A stretch of DNA of 64,000 nt from a candidate division FCPU426 bacterium (GTDB taxonomy: Bacteria > Oederibacteriota > JAAXVQ01 > JAUVAV01), in contig JBFLYH010000002.1 in assembly GCA_040756875.1 (NCBI GenBank), positions 1,070,624 to 1,134,623 on the forward strand. Direction: 5' to 3'. Positions 5,732 to 64,000 of this stretch are shown piece by piece. Every line of letters starts with the position of its first letter. Positions within the stretch are counted from its first letter, which is position 1. The position numbers and the translations under genes are program-made. Below the pieces are notes generated by a model. It worked only from the letters and a program-made list of their open reading frames with translations, searched no databases and was not told the origin of the DNA.

Positions 5732-5737
5732 CCAAAA

Positions 5738-7408
5738 ATGACGTTGCCCATGCCACGGACATTTTGGACCCAGGTGGCCGCAGCCGCCTTGGCCGGAGGC
5801 CTCTTGGCCCTTTCCTTTCCCAACGGCCTTTGGCCGCGGCTGGGCCAGGCTCCAGGCTGGCTGGCTTGGGTGGCGTTGGTGCCTTTTCTGCTGGCATGGC
5901 GCGATGCCAACTGGCCCCGGTGCTTTGCGCTGGGCTGGCTGCTCGGATTCGTTTATTTCTACACGATGATTTCCTGGCTGCCTCTCATCAACCGCGATAC
6001 CAATGTTGATAACGCCATTGGCAGGATCATATTCGCTTTTTTAGGAGGCCTCTACTTCGGCCTGTTCAGTTTTTCGGCCAAGGCGGTGACAGACCGTTTG
6101 CAGTGGCCTTCAGCGGTCGTCGTACCTTTGGCTTGGGTGGCATGGGAATATGTGAGGGGCCAAATCATTATTGGAGGCTGGCCCTGGGGCAGTCTGGGCC
6201 ATACCCAGTACGGCACTCCGCTGGTCCGTCAAGTGGCGGCTGTTGCTGGCGTCAGCGGAGTCTCCTATTGGGTCATGGCCGCGAATGCTGTTTTGGCGAG
6301 CGGCTGGTCGAGGAATTGGGCCGAACCGCTGCGGTGTTCAGTCAAGGATGCATTCCGGCGTCCGGGGTTGGCCGCCATGGTTCTGTTGCTGGCAGCGGGC
6401 TGGCTTTATCTTCTGGCACGCTGCACAGTGGAAGCGAGGGCATTTGCCCGGCAACCCGCCCCGCCGTTGCACCTGGCGCTCCTGCAGGGCAACCTCAATA
6501 CGGACCAGCGCTGGGATCAAGCCTACAAGGAAAACGTCTTCGCCCGCATGGAACCGCTGCATCGGCAGGCAGCGGCTACGCATCCGGACCTCGTCATTTG
6601 GGCGGAGTCCTGTTTTCCGGGCATCTTGGAATACGAACCGGAAAAGGCCTGGGAGGACCGGCTGCGGTCGTTGATCAGGGAAGCGGGCGTACCGACGCTT
6701 CTGACCAGCAATGAATATCAGCCGACGCATCTGCTCGAAGGCCCGCGCTTTCATCACTACAACAGCGCCTTTCTGCTCGGCGCCCAAGGCGAGACCCTGG
6801 GGCGTTACCGCAAGATCAGGCTGGTGCCGGGCGGCGAATACATCCCCTGGGAATGGATGAAGCGCTTTTTAAAGAGCGTAGTGCGCGAACCTATCCCTGT
6901 GGATTTCGAATCCGGCGAAGAATATGAACCGCTGCAGCTGGGCGGCCCAAACGGCACTTGGCGGTTTTCGCCGTTGATCTGTTATGAGGACCAGTTCGAG
7001 GAACTGGGATATCAGCTGGCCAAAAACGGCGCGCGGTTTTTCTGCTCTATGTCCAACGATGCCTGGGCAGGGCACTCGGCCATGAGCAGCCAACGCACGG
7101 CCATGGCGGTTTTTTTAGCCATCGAACACAGGGCGTATATGCCCAGGGCATCCATGACCGGCCCAACGACGGTGATTGATCCCTGGGGTAAAATAAGCTC
7201 TGCTTTGCCTTTCTTCACATCTGGTATGAAAACCGCCACCATCCACCCCGCGGACTTCACTACCTTTTTTTCCCGGTATGGCAATTTGATTCCCTTCATC
7301 ATAACCATCGTGTTTGGGTTCCTGATGATCATCAGCTGTTTGCCCAGGCGATTGGGCGCAGGAAATTTACCCCGCGCGGAAAATTCTCACCACCAACGAC
7401 CGGTTTGA
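5738..7408 (+). CDS. lnt: Apolipoprotein N-acyltransferase family protein, paralogue 1
   Basis: N-terminal TM bundle, WEYVRG..GGWPWGSLG, LLQGN, and the nitrilase-fold triad E (VIWAES), K (YRKIRLVPGGEY), C (PLICYE). Also VIDPWG and a C-terminal TM. Confidence 0.92.
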   Translation: MTLPMPRTFWTQVAAAALAGGLLALSFPNGLWPRLGQAPGWLAWVALVPFLLAWRDANWPRCFALGWLLGFVYFYTMISWLPLINRDTNVDNAIGRIIFAFLGGLYFGLFSFSAKAVTDRLQWPSAVVVPLAWVAWEYVRGQIIIGGWPWGSLGHTQYGTPLVRQVAAVAGVSGVSYWVMAANAVLASGWSRNWAEPLRCSVKDAFRRPGLAAMVLLLAAGWLYLLARCTVEARAFARQPAPPLHLALLQGNLNTDQRWDQAYKENVFARMEPLHRQAAATHPDLVIWAESCFPGILEYEPEKAWEDRLRSLIREAGVPTLLTSNEYQPTHLLEGPRFHHYNSAFLLGAQGETLGRYRKIRLVPGGEYIPWEWMKRFLKSVVREPIPVDFESGEEYEPLQLGGPNGTWRFSPLICYEDQFEELGYQLAKNGARFFCSMSNDAWAGHSAMSSQRTAMAVFLAIEHRAYMPRASMTGPTTVIDPWGKISSALPFFTSGMKTATIHPADFTTFFSRYGNLIPFIITIVFGFLMIISCLPRRLGAGNLPRAENSHHQRPV

Positions 7409-7491
7409 AAGATTATCCTTGTTTTTAAGGTATTTTTTTCATTAGCTGGATTATAAGCAGGTTTTTTTACCAAACCGCAGGACATTCAAAG

Positions 7492-7560
7492 AAAACCCTT
7501 GTAAATCAAAGGTAAAAACCAGGTCGCTTTTTTGACTCGGTCAAAAACCGGTGATATACT
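7492..7560 (+). promoter_or_regulatory. Giant A promoter: upstream box plus sigma70 -35 and extended -10
   Basis: AAAACCCTTGTAAAT (7492-7506); TTGACT (7532-7537); 17 nt; TGaTATACT (hexamer 7555-7560). Confidence 0.75.
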
Positions 7561-7730
7561 TAAGCTGAAATTTATTAAACTGGCATTTAATGTGCCGAAA
7601 AAGAAAGTTGTTACATATATGTCTGCGTCATTGAACAAATGCCAGCATCACCCGGCATGGTCCGGGTTGAAAGATAGATCGAATAGCCAAGAAGGTCGGG
7701 CGGACCGCTTGGTTTAATGAGGTGAGGACA

Positions 7731-10700
7731 ATGAAAACCATTACCCAGTTCTGGTCACAAGCAGCCATCCTGAGCCGGCAATTATGGCGTGTGGCACGGG
7801 AACGGCACCGAAAAGTCATTTCCCTGGTGCTGGCCATGATCTTCGTCTTTACCATGACCGGTATGGATACGATCCTCGCCTATGGTTTCGACAACAACCG
7901 CCACGAAAACTACGATCAGCAAAACGACCTGCTTCCGCCCGCCAATCCCTTGGAACAAGCCCAACCGGACGCTTTCATTTCCGTCAATGCGCCCACGGAT
8001 AAAAAGGCCGATGTGGCGGACACCCGCCTCAACGTGCTCAAAGCCGAATACGGCGACCTGCTTTCCACAGTGTCCCTGCAAACCGTAGCCGAAAAAACGC
8101 TCGCCGGTGTAAGCGTGGACACGGCTTTGAAATGGGTGGCTGAAGTCGTGGCGCCCAAAGGCGAGCAACCGGCCGGCACCCAACCTGAGGAGGAGACGAC
8201 CGAACAACCGGCTGTGGATCCCTCGCTGCTGGCGGATGTAGCCACCACCAGCCAGGGGCCGTTGAGTCTCAGTCTTAATCTGGACGGATTGAGCGGCAAA
8301 GGACGCCTGAGCGACGAGACCGATCTGGCACAACTGCCGATTCCGGCTGAAATGTTACCCAAGGAAATAACGCCAAGCGAACAGCCCGAAACCGTGGAAC
8401 CGGCAGCTGTAGCCCAGGAGACGCAGCCGTCCGCGCAGCCGCTGGAGGCCGGGCTGCCAAAGGTCGACGAGAGCGCGAAACCGGAGCAGCCGGTCGAGGG
8501 CGGCCAGTTGCCTGAAATTCAAGTGGTGGAGCAACCGAAGGATCAAGGCGGGGAAACGAAGGTTACGGAGACCGAGGAGACGGAGAAAAAGAACAATGCC
8601 GAAACGTCTCTGGCGGACCTGACCAAGCAGTTTCTGGCGCTTTTGGGCATGAACGACAAGTTGAAAGAGGACACCGCGGCCAAGACCGAAGAGACCAAGC
8701 TGCCCGAGGAAACAACGGAAACGGGAAGCAAGGAAACCGTTCTGCCGGAAGACGCCCAGGCGAAGAAAGACGGAACCGAGACCCTTGCCGAAGGGGAAGA
8801 GAAGCCTAAGACCGAGGTCGAACAGCCGGCGGCGGAGGAAAAACCCGAGGGCGAAGAAAAGGTGGCCAAGGAGGAAAAGGAGGAGGACGGCGAACAGCCG
8901 GCCGAGGACAAGGACAACGAAGGGGATGAAAAACGGGCCGAATTGCCTGACCAGGTGCTGCGTCTGCTGGGCTTGGGGGAGAAGGATAAAGAGACGGAGA
9001 AGGACACGGAAGTCGAGGGACCGGACAGCCTGGAAGATTTCTTCGCCTTGCTGGGCGACGAAGAACGCAAAGAAGACGGGGAGACGTCCTCGAAGGAAGT
9101 GGACCTGGATGTGGATGCCTTGCTTGACGAACTCAATGCCCAGGGCATCGAGCCGCCCAAAGAAATCGATGAGCCGGCATCCATGCTGGCGGATTTGGTA
9201 GACCGCCCCCAGACCGAAGAAAAACCCGAAGAGACCTTGCTGCCTGAGACCGAGCAGCCAGTGGAAAACACGGATACCGTGCTTACGGATGATACGGAAA
9301 TCGCCCTGGTGGGTCCGGAAGCCGGAATGGTGGAGGAAGAGAAAGAACCCAAAGAAACCGAGGGGACCGCGCCCACCGAAAACAAACCGGAAGAGACCGA
9401 TGGCGTGGAAGCTGCGAGCATCCATGCCCTGCCGGATGTGACACAACTGCGCCAGGAAGCGCTGTTGGTGAACATCCTGGGCACGGATGCGACCCAACAA
9501 CCGGAAACGAATCTGGCGGCCGAGGTCAGCGACGCCTTCAAGCGCGGCGCATCCATGATCTTGGGCCCGGACGCCAATTTGCCGGAGTCTTTATCGCCTG
9601 CAACCACCCAGCTGGAGCCGGCAGGCGTTTCAGAGGCGACGCTGCCTGCCACGGTGGGTACCATCCCGCAGGTTTTCATCGAACAAATCAGCGCCAACCT
9701 GACCGCTGCCGACGAACAGGGGGCGGCAGCCACCCAGGCGGGTCCAGAGGACATTCGCGGCACCCGTTCGAGCGCCCTGGCGGATCTCTTGAATGTATCC
9801 GAGGATGAATCACGAGTTCCCACGGCGCCCGGCGTCATCATCAACCAACAGAGCACAGACAGGACTCCGGATTATTGGGCCGGCGGTTCGGCCTGGGACA
9901 TCGCGCGCATTTACGGCCACCCCGAACAGCCGGAACAGGAAAACCCGGATCCCGAATGTACGGATTTCCTGGGCCTGGCCATTGTCATGTTCATTTTCCA
10001 GGGCCCAAAAGCTATGATGGACTTCTTCCAGAACCCCAGCCTGGAAACCTTCATGGAAATGTTCATGATTCTTACTGATCCGGTGTATTACATCTACAAG
10101 ATCGTGGATGCCTTGATCAATTTCAGCTGGGATACCATGCAGGAGTTCGGTGAATTCGCCAATTCGCCGTTCGGCAAGCTCTTCATGTTCATCATATCCG
10201 TGGTCCTGACGATTTTCACGTGCGGGTCAGCGGCCCCGATCCTCATCGCGCTCATCATCCTGATTGAACTCATTCAGACATTCGTGCCTTTGCCTAAATG
10301 GCTGGATATTGCGCTCTCAATCGTCAAAGCGGCCTTGGGCGGATGGGCCAGCGCCATTAAAGATACTTTCAAGCAAGCCATCACGGAAGTGGTGAAAAAT
10401 GTCATCCAAGCTATATCCGATTTGATTAAAACCTTAACCAAGGATGTTTTGAAAGCGATTATCAAAGCGGTTTTGAAAGAAACCATCGTTCAAATTTTAC
10501 AGGAAGTCCTGCCCGAGGACCTTTTGTTCTATATGCCTTTGATCAGCATTATGGCCGATTGGCTGGCCGCCGGCTTGACGGAAATGTTCATGGGTGAGGA
10601 CGGCAAAGGCTTTACGGATGGTTTTGTCAAAGCCTTCAAGCAGTCATTCAATATTACGCCGGAAACGTTCTCGACCTTTACAGGATTTGTAAAATTCATG

Positions 10701-13700
10701 ACTTCCCCGGCCATGCGGGCCGGGTTGGCTTTCTTGATACAGTCTTTGTTTGTTAACAGTGGAGAGGAAAACGGTGCCAAGGCCGCCCAGGACCGCCGGG
10801 CTGGCGCGATTTGGGGCGCGATGGCCAGCGGGTTCTTGGGGTGGGTGGATGCCAGCGTCAGCACGCGCATTCCGCTGACGTTTATGCAGCAGGTCGGCAT
10901 GTTCCTGTTCAATTTTGTTCGTCCGGTGGTGGCCAAGACCGTATCCACCATTGTCAGCCAGTATGCTCCATCCGATTCGAACGGTGGCGCCAAATGGGGA
11001 GACAACCAGAAGTATTTCGTGGCCAATACCTGGGGTACCATCGCCGAACGGATGGTTCCCGGCTATCAAGTTGATCAGAGCGGAGCCCGTTGGTCCTGGC
11101 TGCCCACGGAAATAGCGTCCGTTTTTTCCAGTGATTCCATGTCCTCTGGCAATGCTTCCACAGCGGCAGGAAGCATGGGCGACAGCAAAGGGATTCAGGG
11201 CGCTTCTGCAGGTCAAGCGGGATTCCTGAACGGCGTCCAGGCGGCCGAGCAACTGGGGCCGGCAAACAGCGAGGTTCAGCAAGCTGAGATGCCGGCTAAA
11301 GTCGAAGCCCAATCGCCTATTTCAACGGACAGCCATGCAGTAAAAGAGGAATCCGAGATTACCGAGAGCGAATCGCCTTTCAACGAGATGGAACAGCAAC
11401 TCAATTTGGGCCAGGAAATCCAAAATCCGAATCAAAATGCTCCGCAACAACAGCAACAAAATCTGGAACAGCAGCGCTCGGCCAGCGGCCTGCCTAAGCA
11501 GACCGAAGAGAAAAAGGCTGAAGCGCCTTCCCGTAGCGAACAGCAAATACAGCAGCAGCAACCCAAGCAACAGCCGGAGAAACAGCCTGAAAAATTGGAA
11601 ACACCCTATGAGCAGCCGCAATACAACCAGCAGGAATCCCTTCCCGACAACAATAATAATGAGCGTGAGGAATTAAACAGCCCCAGCTTGGATAACAGCA
11701 ACCGGGACAACGAGATGGAAGTCCCGCAGGACCCGATGCAGGAAGTCAAGGACTTGAAACTGCCCGGGGCGCACATGCCTCAAAAGGGAGAGCTTAAGCA
11801 AGGCGACGAGCTCGAGCGCCTGGATGAAATTAAAACGCCGAAGGGGAGCACCGTGGAGAAGACGGCTTCCGAGGCATTGAACGACGGCAATGGACAGGGA
11901 GACGGAAACGGGCAAGGCGGAGGCAACGGCGCGGGTCAAGGGGATAATGGGGTGGAAGCTTACCAGGGTGTGACTCAAAATATGCAAATGAACCTGAGCC
12001 AGCACCGCGAGCAATTGGAAACCATGAAACAGACCGGTGAATTGCCGGCCAAATTTGCTCCGGCTGAGAATTCGACGGTGCGAACCGCCACTTTAGCGTC
12101 GGACAGCATCCCCACGGATTCGGCGTTGGGGCAGGTGGTGGAAAACCTAACCCGCGAGGGCAGCTTGCCCTATGGCGGCGACTTCAATTTGAAAGTTGAG
12201 ACCTTCCAAAATCAAGCCGGCAATCAAATCATGGCTGTGAGCAGCATCGACGCGTCCACCGGACAAACTCAGCTTCTGGCTCTGACCGAAAAAATCGGAA
12301 ATGAGCACATTACCACCACTTTCCGCGAGAACACGGAAGGGCCGGGGGCCGTGGCAAACGTGTATGCCGGCGACCAGAAGGGCGATGCGCTGATGGCCAA
12401 TGATTTCGCCATCCCGGATTTGGATGTTAAACGGGGATTGGGCGAATTGACCAAAGGGAGCGGACTAAGCGGCCGGGAACAAGCCAAAGCCGGCGGCGAG
12501 CGCCTTCTGGAAGGTGATCAATTGGAAGAAACCGGAGAGACGTCGCGAGGTTCTGACCGCAACCGTCCGGGCGAGAACAAGGACCAAGACGCCATGGCAG
12601 CCGGGGCGTTTAAAGGTGGAAAAGGTTCGGGTCCTGGGGGAGAGAACAGCGGAAAGGCGGAGGGATGGAACCAGGGTTCGGACGCTACATTATATAAAGG
12701 CGAGAATGGCGGGTTGGAAGTGAAAGGTAGCATGGATGCCCTCAAGCAGGTCATGGATGCCAGCGGTCAGGTGGACCTGAGCAAACTCTCGGGCCGGCAA
12801 AATGCGGATGGCACTATGACATACGAAGCGCCGGGTGTTCAGATCACGGCCACGCCGGCGGCATTGAATGAGGCCACTGCCGGGGGGAGCAGTCTGGATA
12901 TGAGCCGGCTGCAGCCGGTGGCAGGTGAGCAGCTTCCTGCAACGCTCACAAACAACGACGGATTGGATATCCGGGGCAGCCCGCAAGCATTGGACAAGCT
13001 GAAGGACGCCAACGGCCAGTTGGATCTCAAGCAATTCTCAGCTCAGACCATGAAGGACGGCACGGTGAAACTGCAGGGGCCGGAAGGCGTGGAAATTTCA
13101 GGCACGCCGGATGCCCTGGCCAAGGCTGCTGGCAAGGAAAACCAGTTGGACCTGGGAAAATTCCAACCGAAGTCATCAGAGGCCCAAGCAGGGAAAACCA
13201 CGGTGACCGAACCGCCCAAGAACTTCGAGGCGCCTCCGGCCGAGCAGAACGATAAAGCTGTAGGCGAAGGCACCAGCCTGATCAGTTCGAACAAGGAGAT
13301 CGACCCCTCGCGCCGCGATGTCAAAATGAGCGAACAGGAAGGGCCGCGTCCTGCCACTCCGGACAAGCCCCAGGAAATAACCTCGGGCCAGGTGGAAGTT
13401 CCCAAAAAGTACAATTTGTTCCAAACCGCCATGGCCAAGCTTTTCACCTTGGGCAGTTGGGAACCGGGGACCACAATGGCCACGACCTACACCTTCGAGG
13501 TGGACGGCCGCACTGTCTCTATGCAGTTTGTTCCCGAAAGAACGGGATCAGGCAATGCGGTAGGCAGCATGGATGTTAAAGGAAGCGACGGCGAAACGTA
13601 TAAAGTCACCCTGGGGAGCAATGGCGAGGTAACGGGTGTCATGCAATACGTGGTGGCTGGCGGCTTCTGGAAAGGCACGCTGGCCCTACGGCCCGTGGGC

Positions 13701-28562: not shown

Positions 28563-28587
28563 CCCTATCACCGGAGGGTTTGAAAGC

Positions 28588-28626: not shown

Positions 28627-28627
28627 A

Positions 28628-30734: not shown

Positions 30735-30802
30735 AAAACCCTTTAAAATAAGAGTATTATCGAGGACCGTAATTTGTAAAGCCCATTTTCCTGTGATATA
30801 CT
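30735..30802 (+). promoter_or_regulatory. Giant B promoter: upstream box plus sigma70 -35 and extended -10
   Basis: AAAACCCTTTAAAAT (30735-30749); TTGTAA (30774-30779); 17 nt; TGaTATACT (hexamer 30797-30802). Confidence 0.7.
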
Positions 30803-30875
30803 TTAGGCAAATAGAAAAATACGCCTAATTGGCGCCTTGCTCTATATATTTTTCAGGTTAAAGGGGGTTTTGGCC

Positions 30876-49208: not shown

Positions 49209-49218
49209 TTCGTTCAGG

Positions 49219-49259
49219 AAAAAACCGCCCCTATGTTGTTCTGGGGGCGGTTTTTTTTT
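49219..49259 (+). terminator. Rho-independent terminator after giant B
   Basis: AAAAAACCGCCCC...GGGGCGGTTTTTT stem-loop with a 9-T tail, starting 11 nt after the stop. Confidence 0.9.
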
Positions 49260-49343
49260 GGAATATTTTTGCCTTATTTTACGTGCTTAAAAGGAAAATT
49301 TTTACTTTTTTTATGATTTGTGTAAATATTTGCACCAGGCATT

Positions 49344-49412
49344 AAAACCCTTATAAATAAAGCCTATTATAGGGTATGGTCTTTTGACTAGCCTGTTTTT
49401 GGGTGCTATACT
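49344..49412 (+). promoter_or_regulatory. Giant C promoter: upstream box plus sigma70 -35 and extended -10
   Basis: AAAACCCTTATAAAT (49344-49358); TTGACT (49384-49389); 17 nt; TGcTATACT (hexamer 49407-49412). Spacing is identical to the giant A promoter. Confidence 0.75.
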
Positions 49413-49602
49413 TATATTGAGGTAAAAAGGGGAAAAATATTTAAATATTGTATTTTATTTCGGTAAATATTTTATTCCGCTTTTGCGGATGTAAAAAAAT
49501 GGAAAGGTTTGTATAGAAATGGGTAAAAAAGTGGGAGTGCATATTTTCCAAAGCGGTTATAACACACCGGCGACAGGGAAGCCGGGCGGGCGGGGTGAGA
49601 CC

Positions 49603-55600: not shown

Positions 55601-58600
55601 AGAAGCTTTACTCCCAAAACCCGAATCCTCAACTGCTGGCCCAAATGAGCCAGCATGCCCTGCAAAGCTCCAATCCCCAGTTGATGATGAATGCCGCAGA
55701 CCTTCAGATAAAAAGCGGGCAGGTCGACGCGGCCATGAATACGATTCAGCAGGCCTTAAACAACAACTCGCAGCTTCCGGCCGACCAGAAAGCCTCTTTG
55801 CAATTGAACGCCGCGAACCTCATGCAGTCCACTGGGCAAACCGGCGAGATGTTCCAGCAAACCATGGGCGATGTGGCCAATTACTTCAAAGGGCTGGAAG
55901 GGAAACAAATCCCGCCCGAGGTTCTGACCCAGGCGCTGCAGTATCAATCCATGCTCGAAAAAGCTCCGACGGTTGATCCCGCCCTGGCCAAAGCCCTGCC
56001 GGAAATATCCACTTCGCTGGAGTCCATTTCCAAACAATTGGGGCAGCAGGTTGCCCAGGCTGGATCAAACTTGGCTGAAGGCCAGCAGCGCGCGGTTCCG
56101 GAATTGAACGGCATTGTCACCAAGACCAAGGATGGATTTGCGCTGACCCAGAGAGGCGCGAATGAGACCGCGGTTACGACCACCTTCTCCTCCCAAGGGC
56201 CGGATAATACCATGACCACCAGCAAGATCGAAATCAAACCCTTGTCCGGTGGAAACGCGCTGCAGGTTTACGAGCAGACTGGTGGGCATCTGCAGTTGAC
56301 CAGCCAGCAGACGACCGTCGAAACCACGATGACAGTGAATGGCCAAAAGCAAACCAAGATGGTCGACGCGTTGTTGCCGGTCAACCGAACGGGAGAGGTT
56401 CAGACAATCGCTGTGGTTGATGGCCAACCCTATGTCCTTACTGTCGGCCAAGACAACCGGGCTACAGCGGTTTTGGGTCATACTCCCGAAGCGAACAGCA
56501 GTCTCAATTACCAGCAAGAACTGCCGACGGGAATTAAAATGACCTTCAATCCCGCGGATAATACGGCCACGATTACGTTGCCGGATGGAAGCACTTCGGT
56601 TGTGTCCGGCAAGACGATCCAGACCATGGCGGATGTTGACGCTTTGGGGATCAAGGCAGGAAACACCGCTGATTTGATCGGCAAGATGGCCTTCACGCTC
56701 ACTATACCCGGCAAAGGCAGCGTGACTTTGATCGGGTCAGCCCAGGAGATCCAGGCTGGCAATTACTACGCCGCCGGCACCTGCAAGCCAATCAATCCCA
56801 AGCCTGGCCAGGAAGCGTCGGTATCTTATCTTGCCCAATACCGCGGCGGGAATTTATCCCAAGTCAATTTGGCGGATTCATTCAAAACCACGATTTCTTA
56901 TCAAGCAGCAGACCTTTCCAAATTCACAGTGACGCAAACCAGCGCCGATGGTCAGCGAGTTGCAACATTAAAATACGAAAACAATCAACTGCAAGGCTAT
57001 GGCGTAGAGTATAAGGCTTTCGGCTTGACGTTATTGTACGATGCCAAGGGCGTCATCACCCAGGAATGCCTGCAATACCTCAAGGAAAACAGCGGTAAAG
57101 GGTATACTTTCAAAGCCACCAGTCAGGGCTTCTCACTGACCAATAATAACACTAAATTTGAAGCATTTTTCAGCAATCAGGGCCGTGCTTTGCTCAACCC
57201 GGGCCAAGGCGGCACCAGTGGTGGCTTACAGGAAGTAATGGAATTTGACATCAAGCAAAATGTGAATTTCCAGGTGGCGAAATATGACAATGGGAGCCTG
57301 GGCACGCAAACAGTGCATTATGACCAGATTACCAGGGAACACGTGTTGCTCCAGACGTCATCGGATGGGATGGTCACGAAAACAACCATCACAAGCGACA
57401 TCTCCGGCAGCGTGAGCAGCCGGTTGGTTGAGAATTTGAACATGACCCAAACGGAAAAAGGAACTTTCTCGAAAGACGGGTTGGATACGGGAACGCGTGA
57501 TTTTCAAGCGAAGGTTCTGACGGGTACGGATGAAGGGACAGGAAACAAGGTTCGGCGGGAAAACGTCACCAGCCATGAACAACTGGAAGGCGGTAAAGTT
57601 ATCGAGAGCACCATGCATGTCGGAATGATGGAAATTACGAATCCGGCAGGCGAATTGGTGCAAAGGATGACGGACGTCAGTTACAAGAATGGCGAAATCC
57701 AGTCGGCGGCAAAGATGGAAGCCCCTAAGCAAACGATGACGGGAGTGAAATTTACCGACGGAAAGATATCCTACGCGGCGACGCTTGATTCCGGCGGGCA
57801 ACACATGACGGGTGTGACCTTCCGGCCAGACGGCAGTTTGGAAAAAGCCGTGACGATGACCATTGCAGGAGAAAAAGGCAAACCCGCCACAGAGATGAGA
57901 GGCGTTCGCTTCAACGCGGATGGAACTTTAAACAGGGCGGACTCGTATAAATCCGGCGGGCAGACGATGACCGGCGTGGTTTTCGGGAAGAACAACAGCA
58001 TTTCGTATGCGGCGACAATGACGATAGCCGGAGAGCAGGGCAAACCCGCAACGACGATGAAAGGCGTTACGTTCAACGCGGACGGAACGCTGAACAAAGC
58101 GGATTCCTACAAATCCGGCGGGCAGACGATGACCGGCGTGGTTTTCGGGAAGAACAACAGCATTTCGTATGCAGCGACGATGACGATAGCCGGAGAGCAG
58201 GGCAAACCCGCAACGACGATGAAAGGCGTTACGTTCAACGCGGACGGAACGCTGAACAAAGCGGATTCCTACAAATCCGGCGGGCAGACGATGACCGGCG
58301 TGGTTTTCGGGAAGAACAACAGCATTTCGTATGCAGCGACGATGACGATAGCCGAAGAGCAGGGCAAACCCGCAACGACGATGAAAGGCGTTACGTTCAA
58401 CGCGGATGGAACATTGAATAAAGCGGATTCCTACAAATCCGGCGGCCAAACAATGACTGGCGTAGAGTTTGGCGAAAACAATTCAATTAATTTCGCGAAA
58501 ACCATGACGATTGACGGAGAGCAGGGCAAACCTGCAACCGAGATGAAAGGCGTTCATTTTAATGCGGATGGCACTTTAAAGACCGCGGACAGTTACCAAG

Positions 58601-61600
58601 CCGGCGTGCAAACCATGACCGGCGTAGTCTTTGGAAAAAATAATTCTATTGACTATGCCCAAGGTATGACGGTTGAAGGCGAAAAAGGTAAGCCGGCCAC
58701 GGAAATGAAGGGGGTTCGCTTTAACGCGGATGGGACGCTGAAATCGGCTGACAGTTATGTATGCGGGGACCAGGCAATGACAGGCATACGCTTCGGGGCG
58801 AAAAACAGCATTGAGTTTGCCGCGACTGTGAAGACCCCGAACCGCATGATGTACGATGTTCTGTTTGGCGAAGGAGGAAAGATCAAGGAGGCGGGTCGAA
58901 TTGAGGAAACCATCGCCCGTCAGGACGTGAAAAACGACGCGGGCAAGGTGATCGGCGAAGAACGAGGGGTTCAACGGACGCTTTTGAATGCCAAATTCGA
59001 CGATGCCGGTAACTTGATCAGCGCTACGCAAAAAGCAAGTATTGCGGTCCGCACGGAATTCAACGCTGAAAACGGACGGACTACCGAAAGCCGGAATATC
59101 CGCTCGGAGACAAGGATTGAGGGCGGTAAGATCATCGAAAGCCGGACCGAAGTCGCAGTGGTGCAGACCCGCAACGCTAAAAATATTGTCGTGGACGAGC
59201 AACATAATATCGTAGAGTCGCTCTCCACGGTTTCGGTCAGCGGCAGGGACGTCAAGGTGCAAATCACCCAGACCAAAGACGGTTCGCAGGTGGTCATCAA
59301 CGGCAACAAGGAGCATCAGTTGTCCATGGGCACCGACGTGCGGGTGACGACAGACGGCAAGTCGCTGATCATCCAGGACGCGCGGGGGGTATTACGCGAG
59401 TTCTCGCCTGACGGCAAAGAAACCACGGGCTGGTTCCGTGAACGGGCGAACAATTGGCATGAGTTCACGAACAAGATCAGCGTGGCCTGGAATACCTATG
59501 TGGATCGTTTAGTAAGGCTGGATAACTGGGTGATGGACAGCAATAGCGTGCTGGAAGTTGTTGGGAAAAGCCTGGTGCAGGCCGTTGCAGGCGTGGGAGC
59601 CGCATTTGCCTTCCTCGGCAGCGTGGTGCTGGATGCCAGCCTCACGCTCGTTATACAGCAAGTCGGGGCGATTCTTGGACCTACGCTAGAATGGACAATC
59701 AATTTAGCCCTGTACCCGGTTGCAGCGGCCGTCTATTTGACCACCGGCGAATCGCTGGGCCGCATGACCCTGGATTCCATCAAGGGAGGCATTGCCGCGG
59801 CCTTCGCACCCATCGATCGGGGCATTCAGGCCATGCAAGCCAAGATCCTGGGCTGGGCTGAGTCGGCCCTGACCAACGCAGAACTCTCCAACAGCCAGTT
59901 TGGCAAATGGGGATACGGCGCCTTGGCTGCAGGATTGAAAGTGTTGGGTGAAAATTTGCCCATTATTCTCATCATGGCTCCAAAGCTGATTGATATTGTC
60001 GCGCCCGGAGTGGGAACGGCCATCAGCGCGGTTTTGGGGACTCTCTTGCTCGCCAAAGATGCCGTGATTCATGGATTGGCCCATATGTACCAGACGTTCT
60101 TTGTGGCTCCATTTAATAACATTTCAATGGGGCTTTCCCAACTGTCGAACGCCTTGTTCAATCCACAGGATAGCGGCCTTTCTCAGCTGCGGCAGGTCGT
60201 TAACGGAGTGGTTTCCATTGGCAACGGAATAGTAGGGCTGGTATTTGCCAGGCAAATGCTTAAAGAGGCTTTCACGGAAGCAAAAGCTGAGGTCACGGAA
60301 AAAGCCGCTACACCCGCCAAGGCGAACCTCGCCGCCTTTTTGGAAAAGGGAGGACTTGAAGCGCTTGGTAAAGTCATGGAGATGAATTTGGGCAAATTCT
60401 TGGAGACTTTCATGAAGTTGCCTGAAGGTTCTTTGAAAAACATGAGTTGGAGCAACTTAAACCTTAAAGAAGCCCTTTATAACCATAATGGGGCCAGAAT
60501 CAGTCTGGGTGAAATGCTGAAGAGTCCCAACGGCGCAGCTCAACTCATGATGATATTAAAGGGCGAGAATTTCCGGCTTGGCAGCTTGGAATTCCAGATG
60601 CCGGCACCCAAACCCTCATTCACCCAGCGAATGGCCATGGGGATACAGAAGGCGCTGGGACGGGAACCGCAGGCTTCCGGCCCGATCACCAAGCCACTGA
60701 CCCAGTTGGTCCGTCCGTCTCAAATCGGGCAGGCCATTTGCCCGGCTGCCATCCTGCCGGCGGCCCGGGTTTTTGTCTCTGCGTTCATTAATCACCAAAT
60801 ACAATCCCTGGCCAACGTTGGCCGGGTCATGGGAGCCTTTGGACGTTGGGTCGGCAGCTTTAGTTTCATGCAGCCGGTTACCCGGGGCATGTCTTCCATG
60901 GTGCAGGCCGTGCAAGGGGCGGTTTCAAAAGTGTGGAACAGCCCGGTTGCCAGGATGTTCTATCCAGAAGCGCTCCGCACCGCGGCTCCGGGCATTGCCC
61001 AGGCATTGCGCGCCGGGTCTTTCAAGGAGGCGGGCAGCCTGGCTGCCGCGGCTTTCAGGCAGGTCGGGACTAATTTGCAGAAAGCCCTGTTGGATCTGCC
61101 GCAAGCTGTAAAAGCACGCCTAAGCGCAGGTGTGACGCTTGCCGGCTCGGGTAATGCGCCAGTGCGCGCCGCGGAAATGATGGCAAGAACCGGCATGGCT
61201 GAAAACGTCGCCGAACCCCTGACCGAAGCCACAGCTAAGCAAAGGGCGTTGGATGTGCAGGCGTCGGAACGAGGCGAAACCGCGGAGATTGGCAAAACCT
61301 TAAGTGTGGTAGGAGACGGCCAGTCTTCGGGTGTCGGGGAGTCCGGGGTTGTGAAGCCGACGGTTTCATCGGAAACCACCGGCGCGAAATCCGAGGGCCC
61401 CGGCGCGGGAACGGAAAAATCCGCTTCGCAGGGAACGGGGACGAAAGGCGCCGGCGCCGGAGTGCCTTCCGAAGCCGTGGCGAAAATCCAGGGCCAAGTG
61501 GACCGGTTGCAGCAAACCGCTGGCCAGCAGCGCTCTCAGTTGGAAAGCGCTCAAAAGTCGAATCTGCCGCAAGGCGAGATTGCCAGGTTAGAACAGCAGC

Positions 61601-64000
61601 TTGGCAGAACGGAAAACGCCCTGCAAAAGGCACAGGCGAATCTGCATGAGCAGAAAATAGCTGATTTACAAGCACAAAAACAGCAAGCAGCCGAAATTGC
61701 GCAGAACCCCGAAGTTTCGCCGATAGATCGCCAAGCCGCGATGTCCGACCAGGTTAAACTGGACGGCGAGATTCAAATTCAGGCGACCAAGGCCCAAGCC
61801 GCGTCCGTGGAGGGCAATATCCGCAGTTTGGAAGCCAAAGCTGGAAGCGACCCGGCGGTCAAGGGGCAGGTCGAGTCCTTGAAAAAGCAGTTGCAGGAAT
61901 TGCGGACTGATGAGGCGAGATTGCAGCAGAGGCAAGATTCGGTATCGAGGATCGAAGAATCGAAAATGCAGCAGCTTAAGCTAGGAGAGCAGCTGGAACA
62001 GACCCGTACAGCAGAGACACAGGCTGCCCAGACACCCGAAGTCAGAAAGATGGAGGCAGCGAAAGGCCAGCGGATCGAGAAAGAAATTCAGCAGGCTAAA
62101 GCCGAGCAGCAGGTCACCGAAGCCAAGCAAAAGGTTTTGGATTTCCAGACCGACCTGGCCAAGGCCAAAACCACAGCGGACTTTAACCGCGCTTTGATCA
62201 AATTGGCCAGCGCCGAGAAGTTATTGCGCGCGGCACAATTGGACCTGATGAGTGCGCAAAAACAAGTTGTGCGCGCCACGCAAAGTGAAGGCCAGGCTGT
62301 TACAAATGCTCTATTGCAAGAAGCAGCCAGCCAATCCGGCTCCGGCATGACCGCCAAAGGCCTGCGGCAAGGAGTGGATACAGTAGCTAAGGAACAGGCG
62401 CCTAGAGCTACGCGCGAAGCGGTGGTCAAAGCCATGGCCGAGCTGCTCAGCGGCAAGGCGTCTGATCCGAAAAGGGCCCTGGAAACATTGGAGAGCGGCA
62501 CAGGCAGCCTGCAAAAAGTGCTGGAATCCATGGTTCGCAACGGCTTGAGCCAGCAGGCGCAGAAAATATTGGATCAGTTGTGCGAAACCAGGGGCATTAA
62601 GGATCAGGCAGGCCGTCAAGCCCTGGCCAGGGAACTGGGCATTACAACGGAAACCGCGGGTGGCGGCAAAGCGGCGAATCCCGGTGATACACAGGCCCTG
62701 ATGGAACAAGCTTTTGGCAATGCGCGGAGCTCGGATCCGCGATATTCGGCCGAAACCAGGGATGCGTTGCGGAGCCTGGGCGCGGATCTGAGGGAAGGAA
62801 CACCCTTGGACACCGCCATGCGACGGAGCGGCAGCCAGATGGAGCAGGCATTCCGGCAGCTCGAAAAAGCGGCGGGCAAAGACGCAGTTACTGAATTGAT
62901 AAAGAATATGACGGCAGAACAAGTGCGGGAAGCAATGACTTCGACCAACCCGCTGGAAACTCTGAGAAATATTCAAAAACAACAAGCCTCGCAAAGCGAG
63001 CAAGTGACAGGCGCTGCGGCCAAGGAAACTGCGGCCACGGGTGAAGTTCAAACCGCCAAAGAACAAGCGGCCGCGTCATTCACGGCAGCTCAAAAGCAGG
63101 CGGCTGCGGAAGTCGAGGCACGGGTCGAAGCCGCACGCAAGCAGGCTGTCGAGCAAAAATTGGGTGCGAAGGACGTCGAGACAGCGGTCGCCAGGGCGGA
63201 AGCCCAAGCTAAGGCCGAAGCTTCAGCTCGGGTGGCGGAAGTGAAAGCGCAAGGCGAGGAAACAGTGCGCAAGGCGGAAACAACGCTGACCGAAGCCAAA
63301 GCCAGGAGCGAGGCTTTGAGCCGGTCCGGAGAGCCGCTGAGCAAGCTGTTGACTGAGAATCCGGGCAAAGCCGAAGCCCTGTTGCAGCGGATGCAGCAGG
63401 TGCAGGAAGCCGGGGCAGCGGTGCGGCAGGCAGTGGATAAAGTGAACCAGGCCCGGACGTACGCAGAGCGGCAGGCTGCGCAGAAACAGCTGGCGCGGGC
63501 CGAGCAACGATTGACACAGATGGAACGGTTGGCGGGCATCAAACCCGAGGCCGGGCGGAGGATCCCCTTCACGTCCGAATGGCGGGCCAGCCGGCAGGCG
63601 GCGCAGGAATCGGTGAACGCGCAGCGGACGACGTATCTCAAACAGCAGCTCAATGCCGTGGACAACATGAGGAACCTGAGTCCCACCGAGCGAGCGACGC
63701 TGCGGGAGTTGATCCAGAACGAGCTGCAGATCCTCAAGCTCCAGGGCAAACAGGAAGGCTGGCTGGCGCGGCGGTTCGAGAGCTTCCGGAACCGGAATGC
63801 CTCGCAAATGACGTCATTGTACAAGGCGCGCACGCAGCTCGTGGAAGCGCTGACGACCCGGACGGAGAACGGGGAGAAGGTCTACAGCAACGAAACCGTG
63901 ATGAAACTGCTGGCAGCCGAAGGCGTGTCTCGGGGCATGATGGAGACGGCCGCGGTGATCGGCGAATCGTTCGGCAAGACGCTGGTCAGGATGCTGGAAA
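49603..64000 (+). CDS. Giant protein C (>4,799 aa, truncated by the window end), paralogue of giant A
   Basis: Absent from the ORF track, which lists no closed ORF in this frame, consistent with no stop before 64000. ATG 49603 follows GGGGTGA. Manual translation MSTLEKIGKTMQSAQRILRQEWRRVVAFMVTFTFTFSMTGLDAIVAHAFDDY...QPDAFVDV...LNVLKSEYGDLLDTVSLQT matches giant A (MTGMDTILAYGFD...QPDAFISV...LNVLKAEYGDLLSTVSLQT). Later shared blocks include QDARGVLREF and GKETTGWF. Confidence 0.9.
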   Translation, partial: MSTLEKIGKTMQSAQRILRQEWRRVVAFMVTFTFTFSMTGLDAIVAHAFDDYKQYQGSKLEAQRDALMSGTNPAENNQPDAFVDVANPDSLNAPATTALSDTSLNVLKSEYGDLLDTVSLQTLSERAASGANLDAMINEIVGQPANGTQGAMLTPEQPGSSLPQVDPSTMADIVTLQQGPLGMSLEMDNADRAQVRTGDEQDLARLPMPAAALKDETQNGPTETAEIPEQDANPVVETPQTPETQTAALPTNPDLLPQSDVQTNQVNSNDQQLQDQNQVQLPEEKQPDQQDVTLPKDQQQPDQKTDTSQNGNLTQQFLALLGLNPDHRTETVTTTQAAGENKEQLLPTTATLPGNETDVAPTDQPTQQQDSEQVVKNQGEPVVLPDGEQPVTKKTDEQTQTEPKTAKNPDQPTEPEQPEEGQSGQGKKPGKDQEKPGTAQTWTDQLKAFFGMDVTTPDRVESEAVETTEVEDTALPELPADQVDAQPVKEGVTETEEIKAPEVEVAEVPDTLPEEGKKPTETEPGEGEDKPEGEGQGKDDELTDQVLSMLGMPSDDEGDTAPVDDPALDQDITIVEGDLPPTDISATAVMGPNTVQIDVNALMVDQVQVQNDNNLPVENETPSPALVETPRAELQTNNLPVEQNLPQGDQQPVQNTQNQQSDQVGICMVGPDTTLRDPNQNNVQPAPGENEVKAASLVVQPDSTLRDPSQATVNPMLANSPLNTNANYTAINNQPNLVASLPNAVNQGGVVIASTQPINSTVQTAFTVPTIRQQIQPATTPTQPQLGVAPQTNPQMYDVNMQGMMMSSTPAPGSTGTIVPAGTANNIVTVVTAAVQAASNPNHSIPPRPTFEVSTYVAPWTGNAPADDGSWNALANEYQNRYDHPDPPEEKGGGGSGCASFMASPLGKILMFVVTVVLTIFTVGTAAPILLAIMIILEAILAFVPLPPALAMTLGIVLAFVGGWASALNSLGTTAAAAANITVTQAVQQIITNAGGLMNTLLLPAVTKAIIKAVIAKIIVDLFLMLCPEASPILTAFVSLAAGLLAGGLAEMIVDGKGFVDAFKASLNESLGNFFTDPKATVGTLLSSPMALQLYQVLVEAGVVQIMKSAGYTDAYAQLVGSMVSAFAVGGLTFALKGDQGNKFVNFVTMVMVQPIATTISTWYSTEVAPLLKEQGYSSLQTMHFAQNLAGFVNLFAPVATPVVNQATGEVKWKVTLTIIDKFEKMFKKEEPATSSTGTTSAKSDTTPPVQQKPVSIEPALEPKVANALQSPGLTGPTQTLGIRLGFDQMSQYSMPQLSMSNATQSGVMYSMMPPESTPTFMMGSSGSNGNTFGIGTGVMGAGVGSIGLGYQGGVMGASNYGFAPGPSLLSAQGLQGSPSALGTMSLNLYDSPLSPLRTDESITPLKTAENISLPSPVEAAKTSTSPEVKISDVQKAVEQPIDKPIEQAASPKPTAQDVSGDSSQQTKAETSTRPEVNQERSVQNPNMNIQPDTQLPQPESIAQNNQTSAPQEIKAPQAETAPEQLKGNSTDRNPVDQTPKMDESKPTTSQAPEIKDLKTSDLVKFEDPRDKAAKGGSETSAASTAAQTEETAKNNNRVLENSGSYSDAFVPKQDAAGQTPALTQATSGSPQPAAVQSLVNKLQETFVLPKESTYSYSQTQNSQGQTLTQVFNQQGQVIGAQVDLGNGTQITKTFDYQPLAAAQGAEGAASAAGTQVRTLTMENGVISEMQVSKIEGDKLQVIDRKTPQTMGGLDKTHEDRNVKPSGDTVERRNGDPQATAATDATKGASVQTPGAAAEGSTQTRTPQTGEKIQVNVGTQDQPVNVEMKFDPKQANQPMDIEAPNGKTYRVGYDAAGKTSVMGEVKYEGSFWSLSPKEAVFIPQGQTMGYGDKGNVYDCSGGGMKMVKGNESATFTDSQGKTIHMNAAISTSLNNLPSDVKDALVMLENLNSSNPLKLTEQQKTEIAVSATNTLQNYASNQAPGSVEQQQAMGMTYQAEQKLYSQNPNPQLLAQMSQHALQSSNPQLMMNAADLQIKSGQVDAAMNTIQQALNNNSQLPADQKASLQLNAANLMQSTGQTGEMFQQTMGDVANYFKGLEGKQIPPEVLTQALQYQSMLEKAPTVDPALAKALPEISTSLESISKQLGQQVAQAGSNLAEGQQRAVPELNGIVTKTKDGFALTQRGANETAVTTTFSSQGPDNTMTTSKIEIKPLSGGNALQVYEQTGGHLQLTSQQTTVETTMTVNGQKQTKMVDALLPVNRTGEVQTIAVVDGQPYVLTVGQDNRATAVLGHTPEANSSLNYQQELPTGIKMTFNPADNTATITLPDGSTSVVSGKTIQTMADVDALGIKAGNTADLIGKMAFTLTIPGKGSVTLIGSAQEIQAGNYYAAGTCKPINPKPGQEASVSYLAQYRGGNLSQVNLADSFKTTISYQAADLSKFTVTQTSADGQRVATLKYENNQLQGYGVEYKAFGLTLLYDAKGVITQECLQYLKENSGKGYTFKATSQGFSLTNNNTKFEAFFSNQGRALLNPGQGGTSGGLQEVMEFDIKQNVNFQVAKYDNGSLGTQTVHYDQITREHVLLQTSSDGMVTKTTITSDISGSVSSRLVENLNMTQTEKGTFSKDGLDTGTRDFQAKVLTGTDEGTGNKVRRENVTSHEQLEGGKVIESTMHVGMMEITNPAGELVQRMTDVSYKNGEIQSAAKMEAPKQTMTGVKFTDGKISYAATLDSGGQHMTGVTFRPDGSLEKAVTMTIAGEKGKPATEMRGVRFNADGTLNRADSYKSGGQTMTGVVFGKNNSISYAATMTIAGEQGKPATTMKGVTFNADGTLNKADSYKSGGQTMTGVVFGKNNSISYAATMTIAGEQGKPATTMKGVTFNADGTLNKADSYKSGGQTMTGVVFGKNNSISYAATMTIAEEQGKPATTMKGVTFNADGTLNKADSYKSGGQTMTGVEFGENNSINFAKTMTIDGEQGKPATEMKGVHFNADGTLKTADSYQAGVQTMTGVVFGKNNSIDYAQGMTVEGEKGKPATEMKGVRFNADGTLKSADSYVCGDQAMTGIRFGAKNSIEFAATVKTPNRMMYDVLFGEGGKIKEAGRIEETIARQDVKNDAGKVIGEERGVQRTLLNAKFDDAGNLISATQKASIAVRTEFNAENGRTTESRNIRSETRIEGGKIIESRTEVAVVQTRNAKNIVVDEQHNIVESLSTVSVSGRDVKVQITQTKDGSQVVINGNKEHQLSMGTDVRVTTDGKSLIIQDARGVLREFSPDGKETTGWFRERANNWHEFTNKISVAWNTYVDRLVRLDNWVMDSNSVLEVVGKSLVQAVAGVGAAFAFLGSVVLDASLTLVIQQVGAILGPTLEWTINLALYPVAAAVYLTTGESLGRMTLDSIKGGIAAAFAPIDRGIQAMQAKILGWAESALTNAELSNSQFGKWGYGALAAGLKVLGENLPIILIMAPKLIDIVAPGVGTAISAVLGTLLLAKDAVIHGLAHMYQTFFVAPFNNISMGLSQLSNALFNPQDSGLSQLRQVVNGVVSIGNGIVGLVFARQMLKEAFTEAKAEVTEKAATPAKANLAAFLEKGGLEALGKVMEMNLGKFLETFMKLPEGSLKNMSWSNLNLKEALYNHNGARISLGEMLKSPNGAAQLMMILKGENFRLGSLEFQMPAPKPSFTQRMAMGIQKALGREPQASGPITKPLTQLVRPSQIGQAICPAAILPAARVFVSAFINHQIQSLANVGRVMGAFGRWVGSFSFMQPVTRGMSSMVQAVQGAVSKVWNSPVARMFYPEALRTAAPGIAQALRAGSFKEAGSLAAAAFRQVGTNLQKALLDLPQAVKARLSAGVTLAGSGNAPVRAAEMMARTGMAENVAEPLTEATAKQRALDVQASERGETAEIGKTLSVVGDGQSSGVGESGVVKPTVSSETTGAKSEGPGAGTEKSASQGTGTKGAGAGVPSEAVAKIQGQVDRLQQTAGQQRSQLESAQKSNLPQGEIARLEQQLGRTENALQKAQANLHEQKIADLQAQKQQAAEIAQNPEVSPIDRQAAMSDQVKLDGEIQIQATKAQAASVEGNIRSLEAKAGSDPAVKGQVESLKKQLQELRTDEARLQQRQDSVSRIEESKMQQLKLGEQLEQTRTAETQAAQTPEVRKMEAAKGQRIEKEIQQAKAEQQVTEAKQKVLDFQTDLAKAKTTADFNRALIKLASAEKLLRAAQLDLMSAQKQVVRATQSEGQAVTNALLQEAASQSGSGMTAKGLRQGVDTVAKEQAPRATREAVVKAMAELLSGKASDPKRALETLESGTGSLQKVLESMVRNGLSQQAQKILDQLCETRGIKDQAGRQALARELGITTETAGGGKAANPGDTQALMEQAFGNARSSDPRYSAETRDALRSLGADLREGTPLDTAMRRSGSQMEQAFRQLEKAAGKDAVTELIKNMTAEQVREAMTSTNPLETLRNIQKQQASQSEQVTGAAAKETAATGEVQTAKEQAAASFTAAQKQAAAEVEARVEAARKQAVEQKLGAKDVETAVARAEAQAKAEASARVAEVKAQGEETVRKAETTLTEAKARSEALSRSGEPLSKLLTENPGKAEALLQRMQQVQEAGAAVRQAVDKVNQARTYAERQAAQKQLARAEQRLTQMERLAGIKPEAGRRIPFTSEWRASRQAAQESVNAQRTTYLKQQLNAVDNMRNLSPTERATLRELIQNELQILKLQGKQEGWLARRFESFRNRNASQMTSLYKARTQLVEALTTRTENGEKVYSNETVMKLLAAEGVSRGMMETAAVIGESFGKTLVRMLE
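57805..58776 (+). repeat. Six tandem 162-bp (54-aa) coding repeats in giant C
   Basis: The ATG of MTG recurs at 57805, 57967, 58129, 58291, 58453, 58615 and 58777. Unit MTGVVFGKNNSISYAATMTIAGEQGKPATTMKGVTFNADGTLNKADSYKSGGQT. Confidence 0.95.

Follow-up and report, generated by a model that had tools for sequence, protein, structure and literature searches.

The giant genes of uncultured lineages raise the open question of how proteins with many thousands of residues are exported and anchored. This question is posed in compact form by a locus at the end of contig C2 in the genome G000 (3.22 Mb, 7 contigs, 100%-complete), originating from an uncultured groundwater bacterium of the candidate division FCPU426. 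The window analyzed in this study, i.e., the whole stretch of 64,000 nucleotides, represents the final 64 kb of this contig and stops at the contig end. It encodes two paralogues of the Lnt-family N-acyltransferases (lnt1 and lnt2) and three giant proteins, referred to as A, B, and C (Table 1). Together, these genes represent a compact and conserved set of parts, namely a predicted membrane giant bearing a motor, an Rhs-type giant lacking a toxin, and two Lnt enzymes with an apparently intact catalytic triad, which are restricted to giant-bearing genomes. Our interpretation, proposed tentatively and held at somewhat less than an even chance, is that the locus encodes an envelope set in which motor giants would be stitched into the membrane, B would serve as an Rhs-type structural protein, and the Lnt enzymes would lipidate an exported giant.

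The sequence-only reading had described lnt1, A, lnt2, B, and C as following each other without other credible genes, and the open reading frame (ORF) map agreed with this description. In addition, it placed lnt2, the strand of which had not been stated, in convergent orientation to A and divergent from B. The remaining ORFs of ≥150 amino acids (aa) within the giants were overlapping shadow frames of the GC-rich DNA, and the likely ATG starts of A, B, and C were each preceded by a purine-rich ribosome site.

Table 1. Features of the Lnt–giant locus and its surroundings (positions refer to the window, unless a genome and contig are given).
Feature	Position	Strand	Remarks
OmpA-domain outer-membrane protein, UPF0164 (PorV-like)+OmpA	G000:C2:1066848-1069707 region, just outside the window		605 aa
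GAF-GAF-HD (HD_5 type) signalling protein	1672-3771	+	Pfam: GAF_2 2.8e-35, HD_5 8.1e-29
lnt1	5738-7408	+	ORF, 556 aa; Lnt-family N-acyltransferase paralogue; 323 nt upstream of A, co-directional
Promoter site upstream of A	7532-7560	+	sigma-70-like, TTGACT-N17-TATACT
Giant A	ORF 7722-28562, likely ATG 7731	+	6946 aa
A, hydrophobic cluster 1	10119-10721	+	residues ~800-1000; peaks 837-855, 934-952; 38-residue hydrophobic hairpin-like stretch
A, tandem repeat	16356-17355	+	4.5 copies of a 74-aa unit; TRF period 222, 83% matches
A, hydrophobic cluster 2	18189-18851	+	residues ~3490-3710; four hydropathy peaks
A, SecA-like two-lobed ATPase module (predicted)	22992-25661	+	residues ~5091-5980
A, hydrophobic clusters 3 and 4	26580-27881	+	residues ~6287-6720; peaks 6287-6368, 6700-6718
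A, conserved extreme C-terminus of the A/C family	28527-28559	+	...QPKLKxTGSAA-COOH
lnt2	28628-30310	-	ORF, 560 aa; second Lnt paralogue, between A and B
Promoter-like site upstream of B	30774-30802	+	TTGTAA-N17-TATACT; read from the sequence
Giant B	ORF 30837-49208, likely ATG 30876	+	6123 aa
B, tandem arrays	34335-43922	+	23.4 x 57 aa, then 34.7 x 54 aa (TRF)
Intrinsic-terminator-like hairpin after B	49214-49261	+	
Promoter site upstream of C	49384-49412	+	TTGACT-N17-TATACT
Giant C	ORF 49519-63999, likely ATG 49603	+	>4827 aa, open at contig end

Membership of lnt1 and lnt2 in the Lnt family was assessed by means of the curated model TIGR00546 and the domain order PF20154 plus PF00795, i.e., a multi-pass LNT_N domain followed by a CN-hydrolase domain. 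Pfam detected LNT_N and CN_hydrolase with E-values of 1e-29 and 3.3e-28 in lnt1 and of 1.8e-24 and 2.2e-26 in lnt2, and TIGR00546 assigned 272.7 and 257.4 bits to the two proteins, respectively, with an equivalog cut-off of 132.9. The motifs WAES, RYRK, and CYE align with the catalytic Glu-Lys-Cys residues of E. coli Lnt, and E290, K359, and C415 (lnt1 numbering) are invariant across nine subfamily members; judged by these residues, the catalytic triad is intact in lnt1 and lnt2. The two proteins share 51% identity, and, since G000 harbors four further Lnt-like genes, they are to be regarded as paralogues. The Lnt located at 879 kb on contig C1, being 27-30% identical to lnt1 and lnt2, is probably the housekeeping copy. 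A search of 5.8 billion clusters indicated that the subfamily is discrete, comprising 30 clusters with 42-100% identity to lnt2, after which identity drops sharply to ≤35%, the level of ordinary Lnts.

Three tandem, divergent Lnt-like genes (G000:C2:736068-743885; genes at 736-741 kb) are 23-25% identical to lnt1 and lnt2 and adjoin two genes whose translations, as judged by eye, resemble beta-ketoacyl synthases. The genome G003 also encodes a member of this third Lnt class (C27:22834-24525), flanked there by an A-like giant on one side and a B-like giant on the other.

The giants A and C are paralogues with 26% identity over approximately 1900-2800 residues. A third copy, D, is encoded on contig C5, and C-terminal fragments of the family were found at the start of C5 and at the end of C3. 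The family is very rare, as an exhaustive phmmer search of 1.84 billion protein clusters yielded 11 representatives, and four near-length relatives were present among the 5.8 billion clusters mentioned above. Neither Pfam nor NCBIfam provided a credible match for A or C, the two sub-threshold Pfam matches of A (E ≤ 0.01) being at chance level. An alignment of seven sequences (A and six relatives) revealed an architecture common to the full-length members, in which a signal peptide, a conserved N-terminal block (N-block), an acidic spacer, hydrophobic cluster 1, variable beta modules, and hydrophobic cluster 2 are followed by a helical region of ~1300 residues, the SecA-like ATPase, hydrophobic clusters 3 and 4, and a conserved C-terminus. 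Conservation peaks in the N-block, the membrane clusters, the ATPase, and the C-terminus.

Signal peptides had been expected on all three giants, and, in fact, A, B, and C each begin with a basic stretch, a hydrophobic stretch, and a signal-peptidase-like site. In the A/C family, this region ends in FTFTMTG(L/M)D...A(H/Y/N)(A/G)|(F/Y/I)D, and the site is kept in nine out of ten A/C-type N-termini, D being the exception. It is followed by the N-block (...LNVLKxEYGDLLxTVSLQT) and by the acidic, proline-rich spacer of ~600 residues, while the low-complexity and beta-repeat modules further downstream differ between family members; accordingly, the position of the tandem repeat of A is occupied by different repeats in other members. 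Hydropathy analysis located hydrophobic clusters not only in A but also in C (~950-1070 and ~3350-3510), as predicted by the sequence-only reading, which had described hydrophobic hairpins in both proteins. Residues 801-900 of A, with a mean identity of 0.47 to the six relatives, belong to the best-conserved parts of the family, residues 3601-3700 reach 0.39, and residues 6901-6946 represent the most conserved stretch (0.58). A comparison of hydrophobic cluster 1 with the ESM Atlas was unusable, the best score of 0.84 being obtained for clusters without a family. All 16 listed C-termini (A and 15 relatives) feature a KLK-like stretch followed by a short G/S/A-rich tail, e.g., ...TGSAA. The Ala-Ala, small-residue end of this tail recalls C-terminal recognition tags.

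Giant C is cut by the contig end just before the expected position of the motor, which is present in its orthologues. One of them, P0006, is 7124 aa long, and the orthologue in the genome G001 (6706 aa) matches both C and the fragment on contig C5 (C5:2-4324), which itself matches the C-terminal portion of A. The C-terminus of C is therefore likely encoded on contig C5. Short helical repeats with weak MgtE_N/FliG-like Pfam matches were observed in D (L029:4713-10262, contig C5) and in the sister-family giant P0009, where they consist of MKPEDAGK-type units.

The ATPase module of A carries the motifs MGGGKS, WDEFH...TTDTIIGASG, VGFSGTFEG, FAPKIGEGLN, and YRQTMKR. Among 12 aligned motor modules, GGGKS, a DE pair followed by TTDTIIGxSG, GxSGT, APxIGEGLN, and Q..(K/R)R are kept. 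Invariant positions comprise the Walker A sequence GGGKS, both residues of the DE pair, and, in the motif VI-like stretch, the arginine. The motifs resemble GEGKT, DEVDS...TPLIISG, and GMTGTA of SecA. An AlphaFold (AF2) model of 1000 residues (predicted local distance difference test, pLDDT, 72.7; predicted template modeling score, pTM, 0.71) featured two alpha/beta lobes. In a Foldseek comparison of this model with the PDB, SecA or SecA2 occupied all of the ranks 1-19, with E-values between 7e-8 and 3e-4; MDA5, DinG, and XPD followed at lower ranks. The template modeling (TM) scores ranged between 0.26 and 0.39, and such low values are expected for a flexible multi-domain model. VIA alignment assigned SecA (6itc_A) a Z-score of 17.8 over 501 residues and a root-mean-square deviation (rmsd) of 4.2 Å, and SecA structures aligned over 501-524 residues, compared to ~340 residues and Z-scores of 14.8-15.5 for plain DEAD-box helicases.

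In its predicted fold, the motor is thus best matched by SecA and SecA2 (PDB 6itc, 3jv2, and 6t4h), with which it also shares the order of motifs along the chain. In contrast to SecA, it is embedded at approximately residue 5100 of a 6946-aa predicted membrane protein, and its sequence similarity to SecA is below detection; Pfam provided no SecA_DEAD match on A or C. Since fold and motif order stand without a sequence match, the module is termed SecA-like and is not assigned to the SecA family. The SecA-like module named in the sequence-only reading was accordingly recovered by predicted fold only, Pfam and profile comparison being blind to it. Besides the motor of A, G000 retains a normal SecA. 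At the same position of the A orthologue in G001, a member of the same genus, a module was found (L016:5923-9339, minus strand) that could not be aligned to the motor of A by BLAST and for which Pfam returned a chance-level match only, yet it carries SecA-like motifs. This mismatch reflects either extreme divergence or replacement of the module, and even within a single genus the motor can apparently change between species to an extent at which sequence comparison no longer recognizes it.

Giant B, in turn, consists of YD/Rhs-type repeats throughout, and B-type proteins all start with signal peptides. Pfam detected RHS_repeat (9.1e-12), YD_repeat_2x at the N-terminus (1.3e-12), and weak RHS_core and YD matches at the C-terminus. 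No toxin domain was found by Pfam or NCBIfam, no SpvB or TcdB mid domains by Pfam, and no DPxG[LWF] motif anywhere in the protein, which is in line with the YD-like beta-repeat protein without a toxin tip that had been proposed earlier. An AF2 model of 800 aa (pLDDT 63.8, pTM 0.32) consisted entirely of beta structure, each unit contributing five strands. Foldseek returned 47 matches at E ≤ 0.001, and the 45 listed were all Rhs, teneurin, or Tc BC proteins.

These findings bear on the possibility that the locus encodes a contact-dependent delivery machine, in which an Rhs shell or tube formed by B would enclose or conduct cargo and A and C would insert into the target membrane as translocators. 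The locally Rhs-like repeats of B and the hairpin-like hydrophobic clusters of A and C favor such a machine, and the study on Omnitrophota giants by West-Roberts et al. (10.1101/2023.11.21.568195) ties these proteins to predatory or attached lifestyles. However, a closed cocoon was not apparent in the model of B, the TM-scores of which to Rhs-type proteins are 0.13-0.24 despite the local likeness, and VIA does not separate Rhs proteins from outer-membrane barrels and OspA-like open sheets, all of which reached Z-scores of 8-10 with large rmsd. Like the Rhs/YD proteins known from type VI secretion system (T6SS) Rhs effectors, Tc BC proteins, and teneurins, B features YD/RHS motifs and a local beta-hairpin structure. 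In contrast to these proteins, it is devoid of an N-terminal plug or propeller, the DPxGL autoproteolysis motif, and a C-terminal toxin, and compared to a cocoon-forming Rhs core it is ~5-9 times longer, with regular super-repeats of 57 aa and 54 aa and a Sec signal peptide.

Neither cargo, nor a toxin, a cleavage motif, or a T6SS sheath gene was found. A role as a T6SS effector was rejected, because the sheath family VipB was not found in the 100%-complete genome G000, and a Tc BC protein was rejected as well, because B lacks the SpvB/TcdB domains that the same Pfam library finds elsewhere in G000. These domains were detected in a Tc-toxin-like pair located ~220 kb from the locus and unlinked to it (G000:C2:845436-857200), the first member of which is a 2353-aa protein with SpvB, TcdB mid-N, and mid-C domains as well as FG-GAP and RHS repeats; the next gene encodes a protein of 1529 aa that carries PKD and the TcA C-terminal TcB-binding domain. 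Since Pfam recognizes this BC plus A pair in the same genome, the missing matches of B cannot be put down simply to divergence. B is an Rhs-type repeat protein and not a cocoon-with-cargo of the known type. Moreover, the predicted ATP-dependent motor within A argues that A remains in the membrane of the producer itself. Taken together, a delivery machine is considered quite unlikely.

To evaluate how the components are distributed, 60 relatives were searched together with G000, 15 of these genomes (G000 included) belonging to the order of the window and 46 to other parts of the phylum. The A/C motor was detected in 11 of the 15 genomes, the Lnt subfamily (E ≤ 1e-60) in ten, and the B repeats likewise in ten, compared to none of the 46 remaining genomes for each of the three queries; all three were matched in seven genomes, and, since the genomes are kin and many of them are fragmented, these counts are descriptive. 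Ten genomes encode 14 Lnt genes of the subfamily, of which 13 have readable surroundings, one being located on a 2.7-kb contig. None of the 13 is more than 1.4 kb away from a giant gene, in line with the co-occurrence and synteny by which the sequence-only reading had proposed to check the system. The lnt1 type is located upstream of an A/C-type giant in G000, G001, G003 (C21), G007, G009, and G014, whereas in G000, G001, G003 (C27), and G005 the lnt2 type separates giants from each other and is encoded on the opposite strand. In addition, the subfamily Lnt of G004 precedes a B-type giant, and that of G013 a giant of a different family. The full order lnt1-A-lnt2-B-C is present in G001. The linked locus is real and more than a product of chance.

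Linkage of this kind could also result from a giant-gene island without a joint mechanism, in which A, B, and C would be independent adhesins or envelope proteins and the Lnts spare enzymes, acting in lipoprotein or lipid remodelling and retained by inherited order. This would suit a genome in which at least 28 ORFs exceed 1500 aa without overlapping a longer one, which fall into several families, the longest comprising 12,551 aa. Likewise, the housekeeping-type genes upstream of the locus (a Memo-like gene, the GAF-GAF-HD gene, and a split transketolase) are syntenic in G001, and the GAF-HD and outer-membrane protein genes are located upstream even in the sister family. A, B, and C also have separate promoter-like sites, with a terminator after B. 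However, the varied arrangements of Lnt and giant genes, including the opposite strand in four genomes, the B-type giant in G004, and the other giant family in G013, are not predicted by inherited order alone. Furthermore, the Lnt subfamily is present only where giants are, and D joins canonical YD repeats (residues ~560-690) to an A/C-type body in one protein. We consider an island of independent genes rather unlikely, albeit less so than a delivery machine.

The components differ in their rates of change. Between G000 and G001, the flanking genes are 69-88% identical, the Lnts 70-75%, and B 80%, whereas only 53% was determined for both A (first 2730 residues) and C. The motor-bearing giants thus evolve much faster than their neighbors, a pattern that would also fit a surface selected by other cells, as expected for the delivery of cargo upon contact.

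A third explanation, namely cargo of a mobile element or phage (polyvalent giant proteins) or an assembly artefact, would account for the drop in GC content from 0.63 upstream to 0.52-0.58 inside the locus. It would also be compatible with the window stopping at a contig end and with repeats that are hard to assemble. The window, however, contains no integrase, transposase, or tRNA gene (nor was any Rfam family found in it), and the locus occupies the same chromosomal position with the same flanks in the congener and in the sister family. Moreover, in an independent genome, the orthologous reading frames, with lengths of 6179, 6706, and 8056 aa, are uninterrupted. The mobile-element origin was rejected on the basis of the missing integrase, transposase, and tRNA genes and the syntenic flanks in G001, and the explanation as a whole is regarded as very improbable. 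What remains of our confidence is assigned to an explanation not yet conceived.

Returning to the envelope gene set, the following course of events is proposed. The locus would go back to an old set of cell-envelope genes that one order has inherited vertically. The giants A, C, and D would be stitched into the cytoplasmic membrane, with the signal peptide being removed at the conserved sequence AxA|(F/Y/I)D; the acidic spacer would reside outside the cytoplasm, as would the variable beta-repeat modules, and the helical region together with the SecA-like ATPase would be located inside. The motor, acting like a built-in accessory SecA, would spend ATP on threading a very long polypeptide over the membrane, which may be the outer parts of the giant itself, B, or both. 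B would be exported via its own signal peptide and may fold as a long Rhs-type beta sheet, serving as a structural or adhesive surface element and not as a toxin container. The Lnt paralogues, with a predicted periplasm-facing active site, would transfer an acyl chain from a phospholipid to an amine of the exported giant. The simplest acceptor would be the new N-terminus left by the signal peptidase, resulting in a lipid anchor, as described for AatD and its substrate CexE. Gene content, the family membership of the Lnts and of B, the SecA-like predicted fold, the conserved linkage, and the distribution are results of the sequence and structure comparisons; topology, the substrate of the motor, the acyl acceptor, and the role at the cell surface are inferred.

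An extended version of this proposal states that the Lnts N-acylate the aromatic N-terminus (AxA|(F/Y)D) of the motor giants and/or of the Rhs giant, creating a new class of lipoproteins. Motor and lipidation would then constitute a self-contained pathway for export and anchoring of proteins with 6000-8000 residues. This pathway would stand apart from the secretion types known so far, and the unexplained giants of Omnitrophota may follow the same principle. We consider this version unlikely.

Several observations weigh against the proposed envelope set. A comparison of the N-termini revealed a lipobox cysteine or an N-terminal glycine in no giant, so neither of the known Lnt-type acceptors is present. 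The topology of A and C was deduced from a simple hydropathy scan. Regarding the motor, a genome-wide search with Pfam SecA_DEAD (PF07517) matched the canonical SecA and otherwise just a single weak site that is unrelated, the hhalign comparison of the motor profile with the canonical SecA of G000 was not significant (probability 0.09%), and VIA separates SecA from generic helicases by only 2-3 Z units. Co-occurrence is imperfect as well. The genomes G002, G006, and G008 encode the motor without a subfamily Lnt, which is also expected if giants and Lnts are independent, and G013 and G007 encode the Lnt without a motor match, the Lnt of G007 adjoining an A/C-like giant. Finally, the GAF-HD gene and the gene of the OmpA-domain outer-membrane protein are equally syntenic across the order, so that part of the linkage is attributable to an old and stable neighborhood.

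Known systems resemble the locus in part. The giants of Omnitrophota described by West-Roberts et al. (10.1101/2023.11.21.568195), among them the types named 'Archaeovorins' and dockerin-type giants, feature many transmembrane regions and divergent SecA DEAD and preprotein-binding domains without scaffold or wing, Rhs-like beta tubes were reported as well, and the motor was proposed to export the giant itself. A and C resemble these proteins in comprising thousands of residues, in their multiple membrane regions with a SecA-like motor near C-terminal membrane anchors, in their fast sequence change, in the Rhs-like beta structures encoded in the same genomes, and in the proposed self-export. 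In contrast, A and C carry no glycoside-hydrolase, dockerin, peptidase, or metabolic-enzyme domains and belong to a different phylum; no sequence relationship was detected, though without a direct pairwise comparison of the two groups, as phmmer returned only the 11 representatives of the A/C family itself, and the profile search for longer motor relatives just two fragments of the same family. The terms 'acyltransferase' and 'lipoprotein' are absent from the main text of 10.1101/2023.11.21.568195, so that a link to Lnt is not described there. A 2026 preprint on Omnitrophota (10.64898/2026.06.07.730766) reports a SecA_DEAD architecture cluster, and acyltransferases and RHS are unmentioned in its available text. 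The literature searches made returned nothing on giant genes in the candidate phylum studied here.

For the Lnt paralogues, a precedent is provided by the Aat/Cex system, in which, according to Icke et al. 2021 (PMC7943197), the Lnt paralogue AatD acylates the N-terminal glycine of the secreted protein CexE. Both systems feature an extra Lnt-family enzyme that is encoded together with a presumed secreted substrate, the acceptor not being a lipobox cysteine. In contrast to Aat/Cex with its conserved glycine, A/C-type giants are predicted to begin with F, Y, or I after cleavage (position +1), and this position is variable in the B type; AatPABC-like transporter genes were not found in the window, and the presumed substrates are ~50 times larger. 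In view of the SecA giants of Omnitrophota and of AatD, the earlier statement that the locus matches no secretion type was too strong. Giants with SecA motors are already known in kind and are extended here to another candidate phylum, whereas the A/C family and its link to Lnt and Rhs genes are new within the searches made.

As to regulation, the sequence-only reading had assigned the same promoter signature to all three giants and considered them co-regulated. The sites upstream of A and C are indeed identical, while that of B differs in its -35 element (TTGTAA). In the window, the pattern TTGAC-N16-19-TATACT has two matches, one each upstream of A and C, compared to 0.04 matches expected, and five distinct sites were found in the loci of relatives, three of them directly upstream of A/C-type giants, namely the giant of G014 and, in G001, the orthologues of A and C. 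Since the sites are near-consensus sigma-70 sequences, they do not demonstrate co-regulation.

The best-matching orthologues of the GAF-GAF-HD protein (39-44% identity) are encoded upstream of the Lnt-giant pair in G003, G007, G009, and G014, and in G001, too, the gene lies upstream of it; one of these five genomes belongs to the sister family. The protein is a possible regulator of the lnt1-giant unit. Together with the UPF0164+OmpA protein and a 339-aa protein beside the latter, it may represent a regulator with outer-membrane partners, or all of them may be no more than stable neighbors. The UPF0164 (PorV-like)+OmpA protein is kept upstream in at least two genomes (G003 and G014), and the adjoining 339-aa protein carries a type IX secretion system (T9SS) C-terminal sorting domain.

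In G001, the gene order continues after C with an 866-aa protein and a 5843-aa giant, both of which match genes at the end of contig C3 of G000. From this order, the locus of G000 is inferred to run from C2 via C5 to C3. The 6158-aa gene on C3 (G000:C3:396737-415210, minus strand) encodes two cytidylate-kinase domains (7e-21 and 4.5e-6) and probably continues the locus. Adjacent to it (G000:C3:415379-418000, minus strand), a secreted protein of 866-906 aa without a Pfam family is encoded, the N-terminus of which resembles the start of B-type proteins; in G001 and G005, this protein is located after A/C-type giants, as it probably is in G000. Among the ORFs of G000 exceeding 1500 aa, seven have a common N-terminal domain of ~500 aa.

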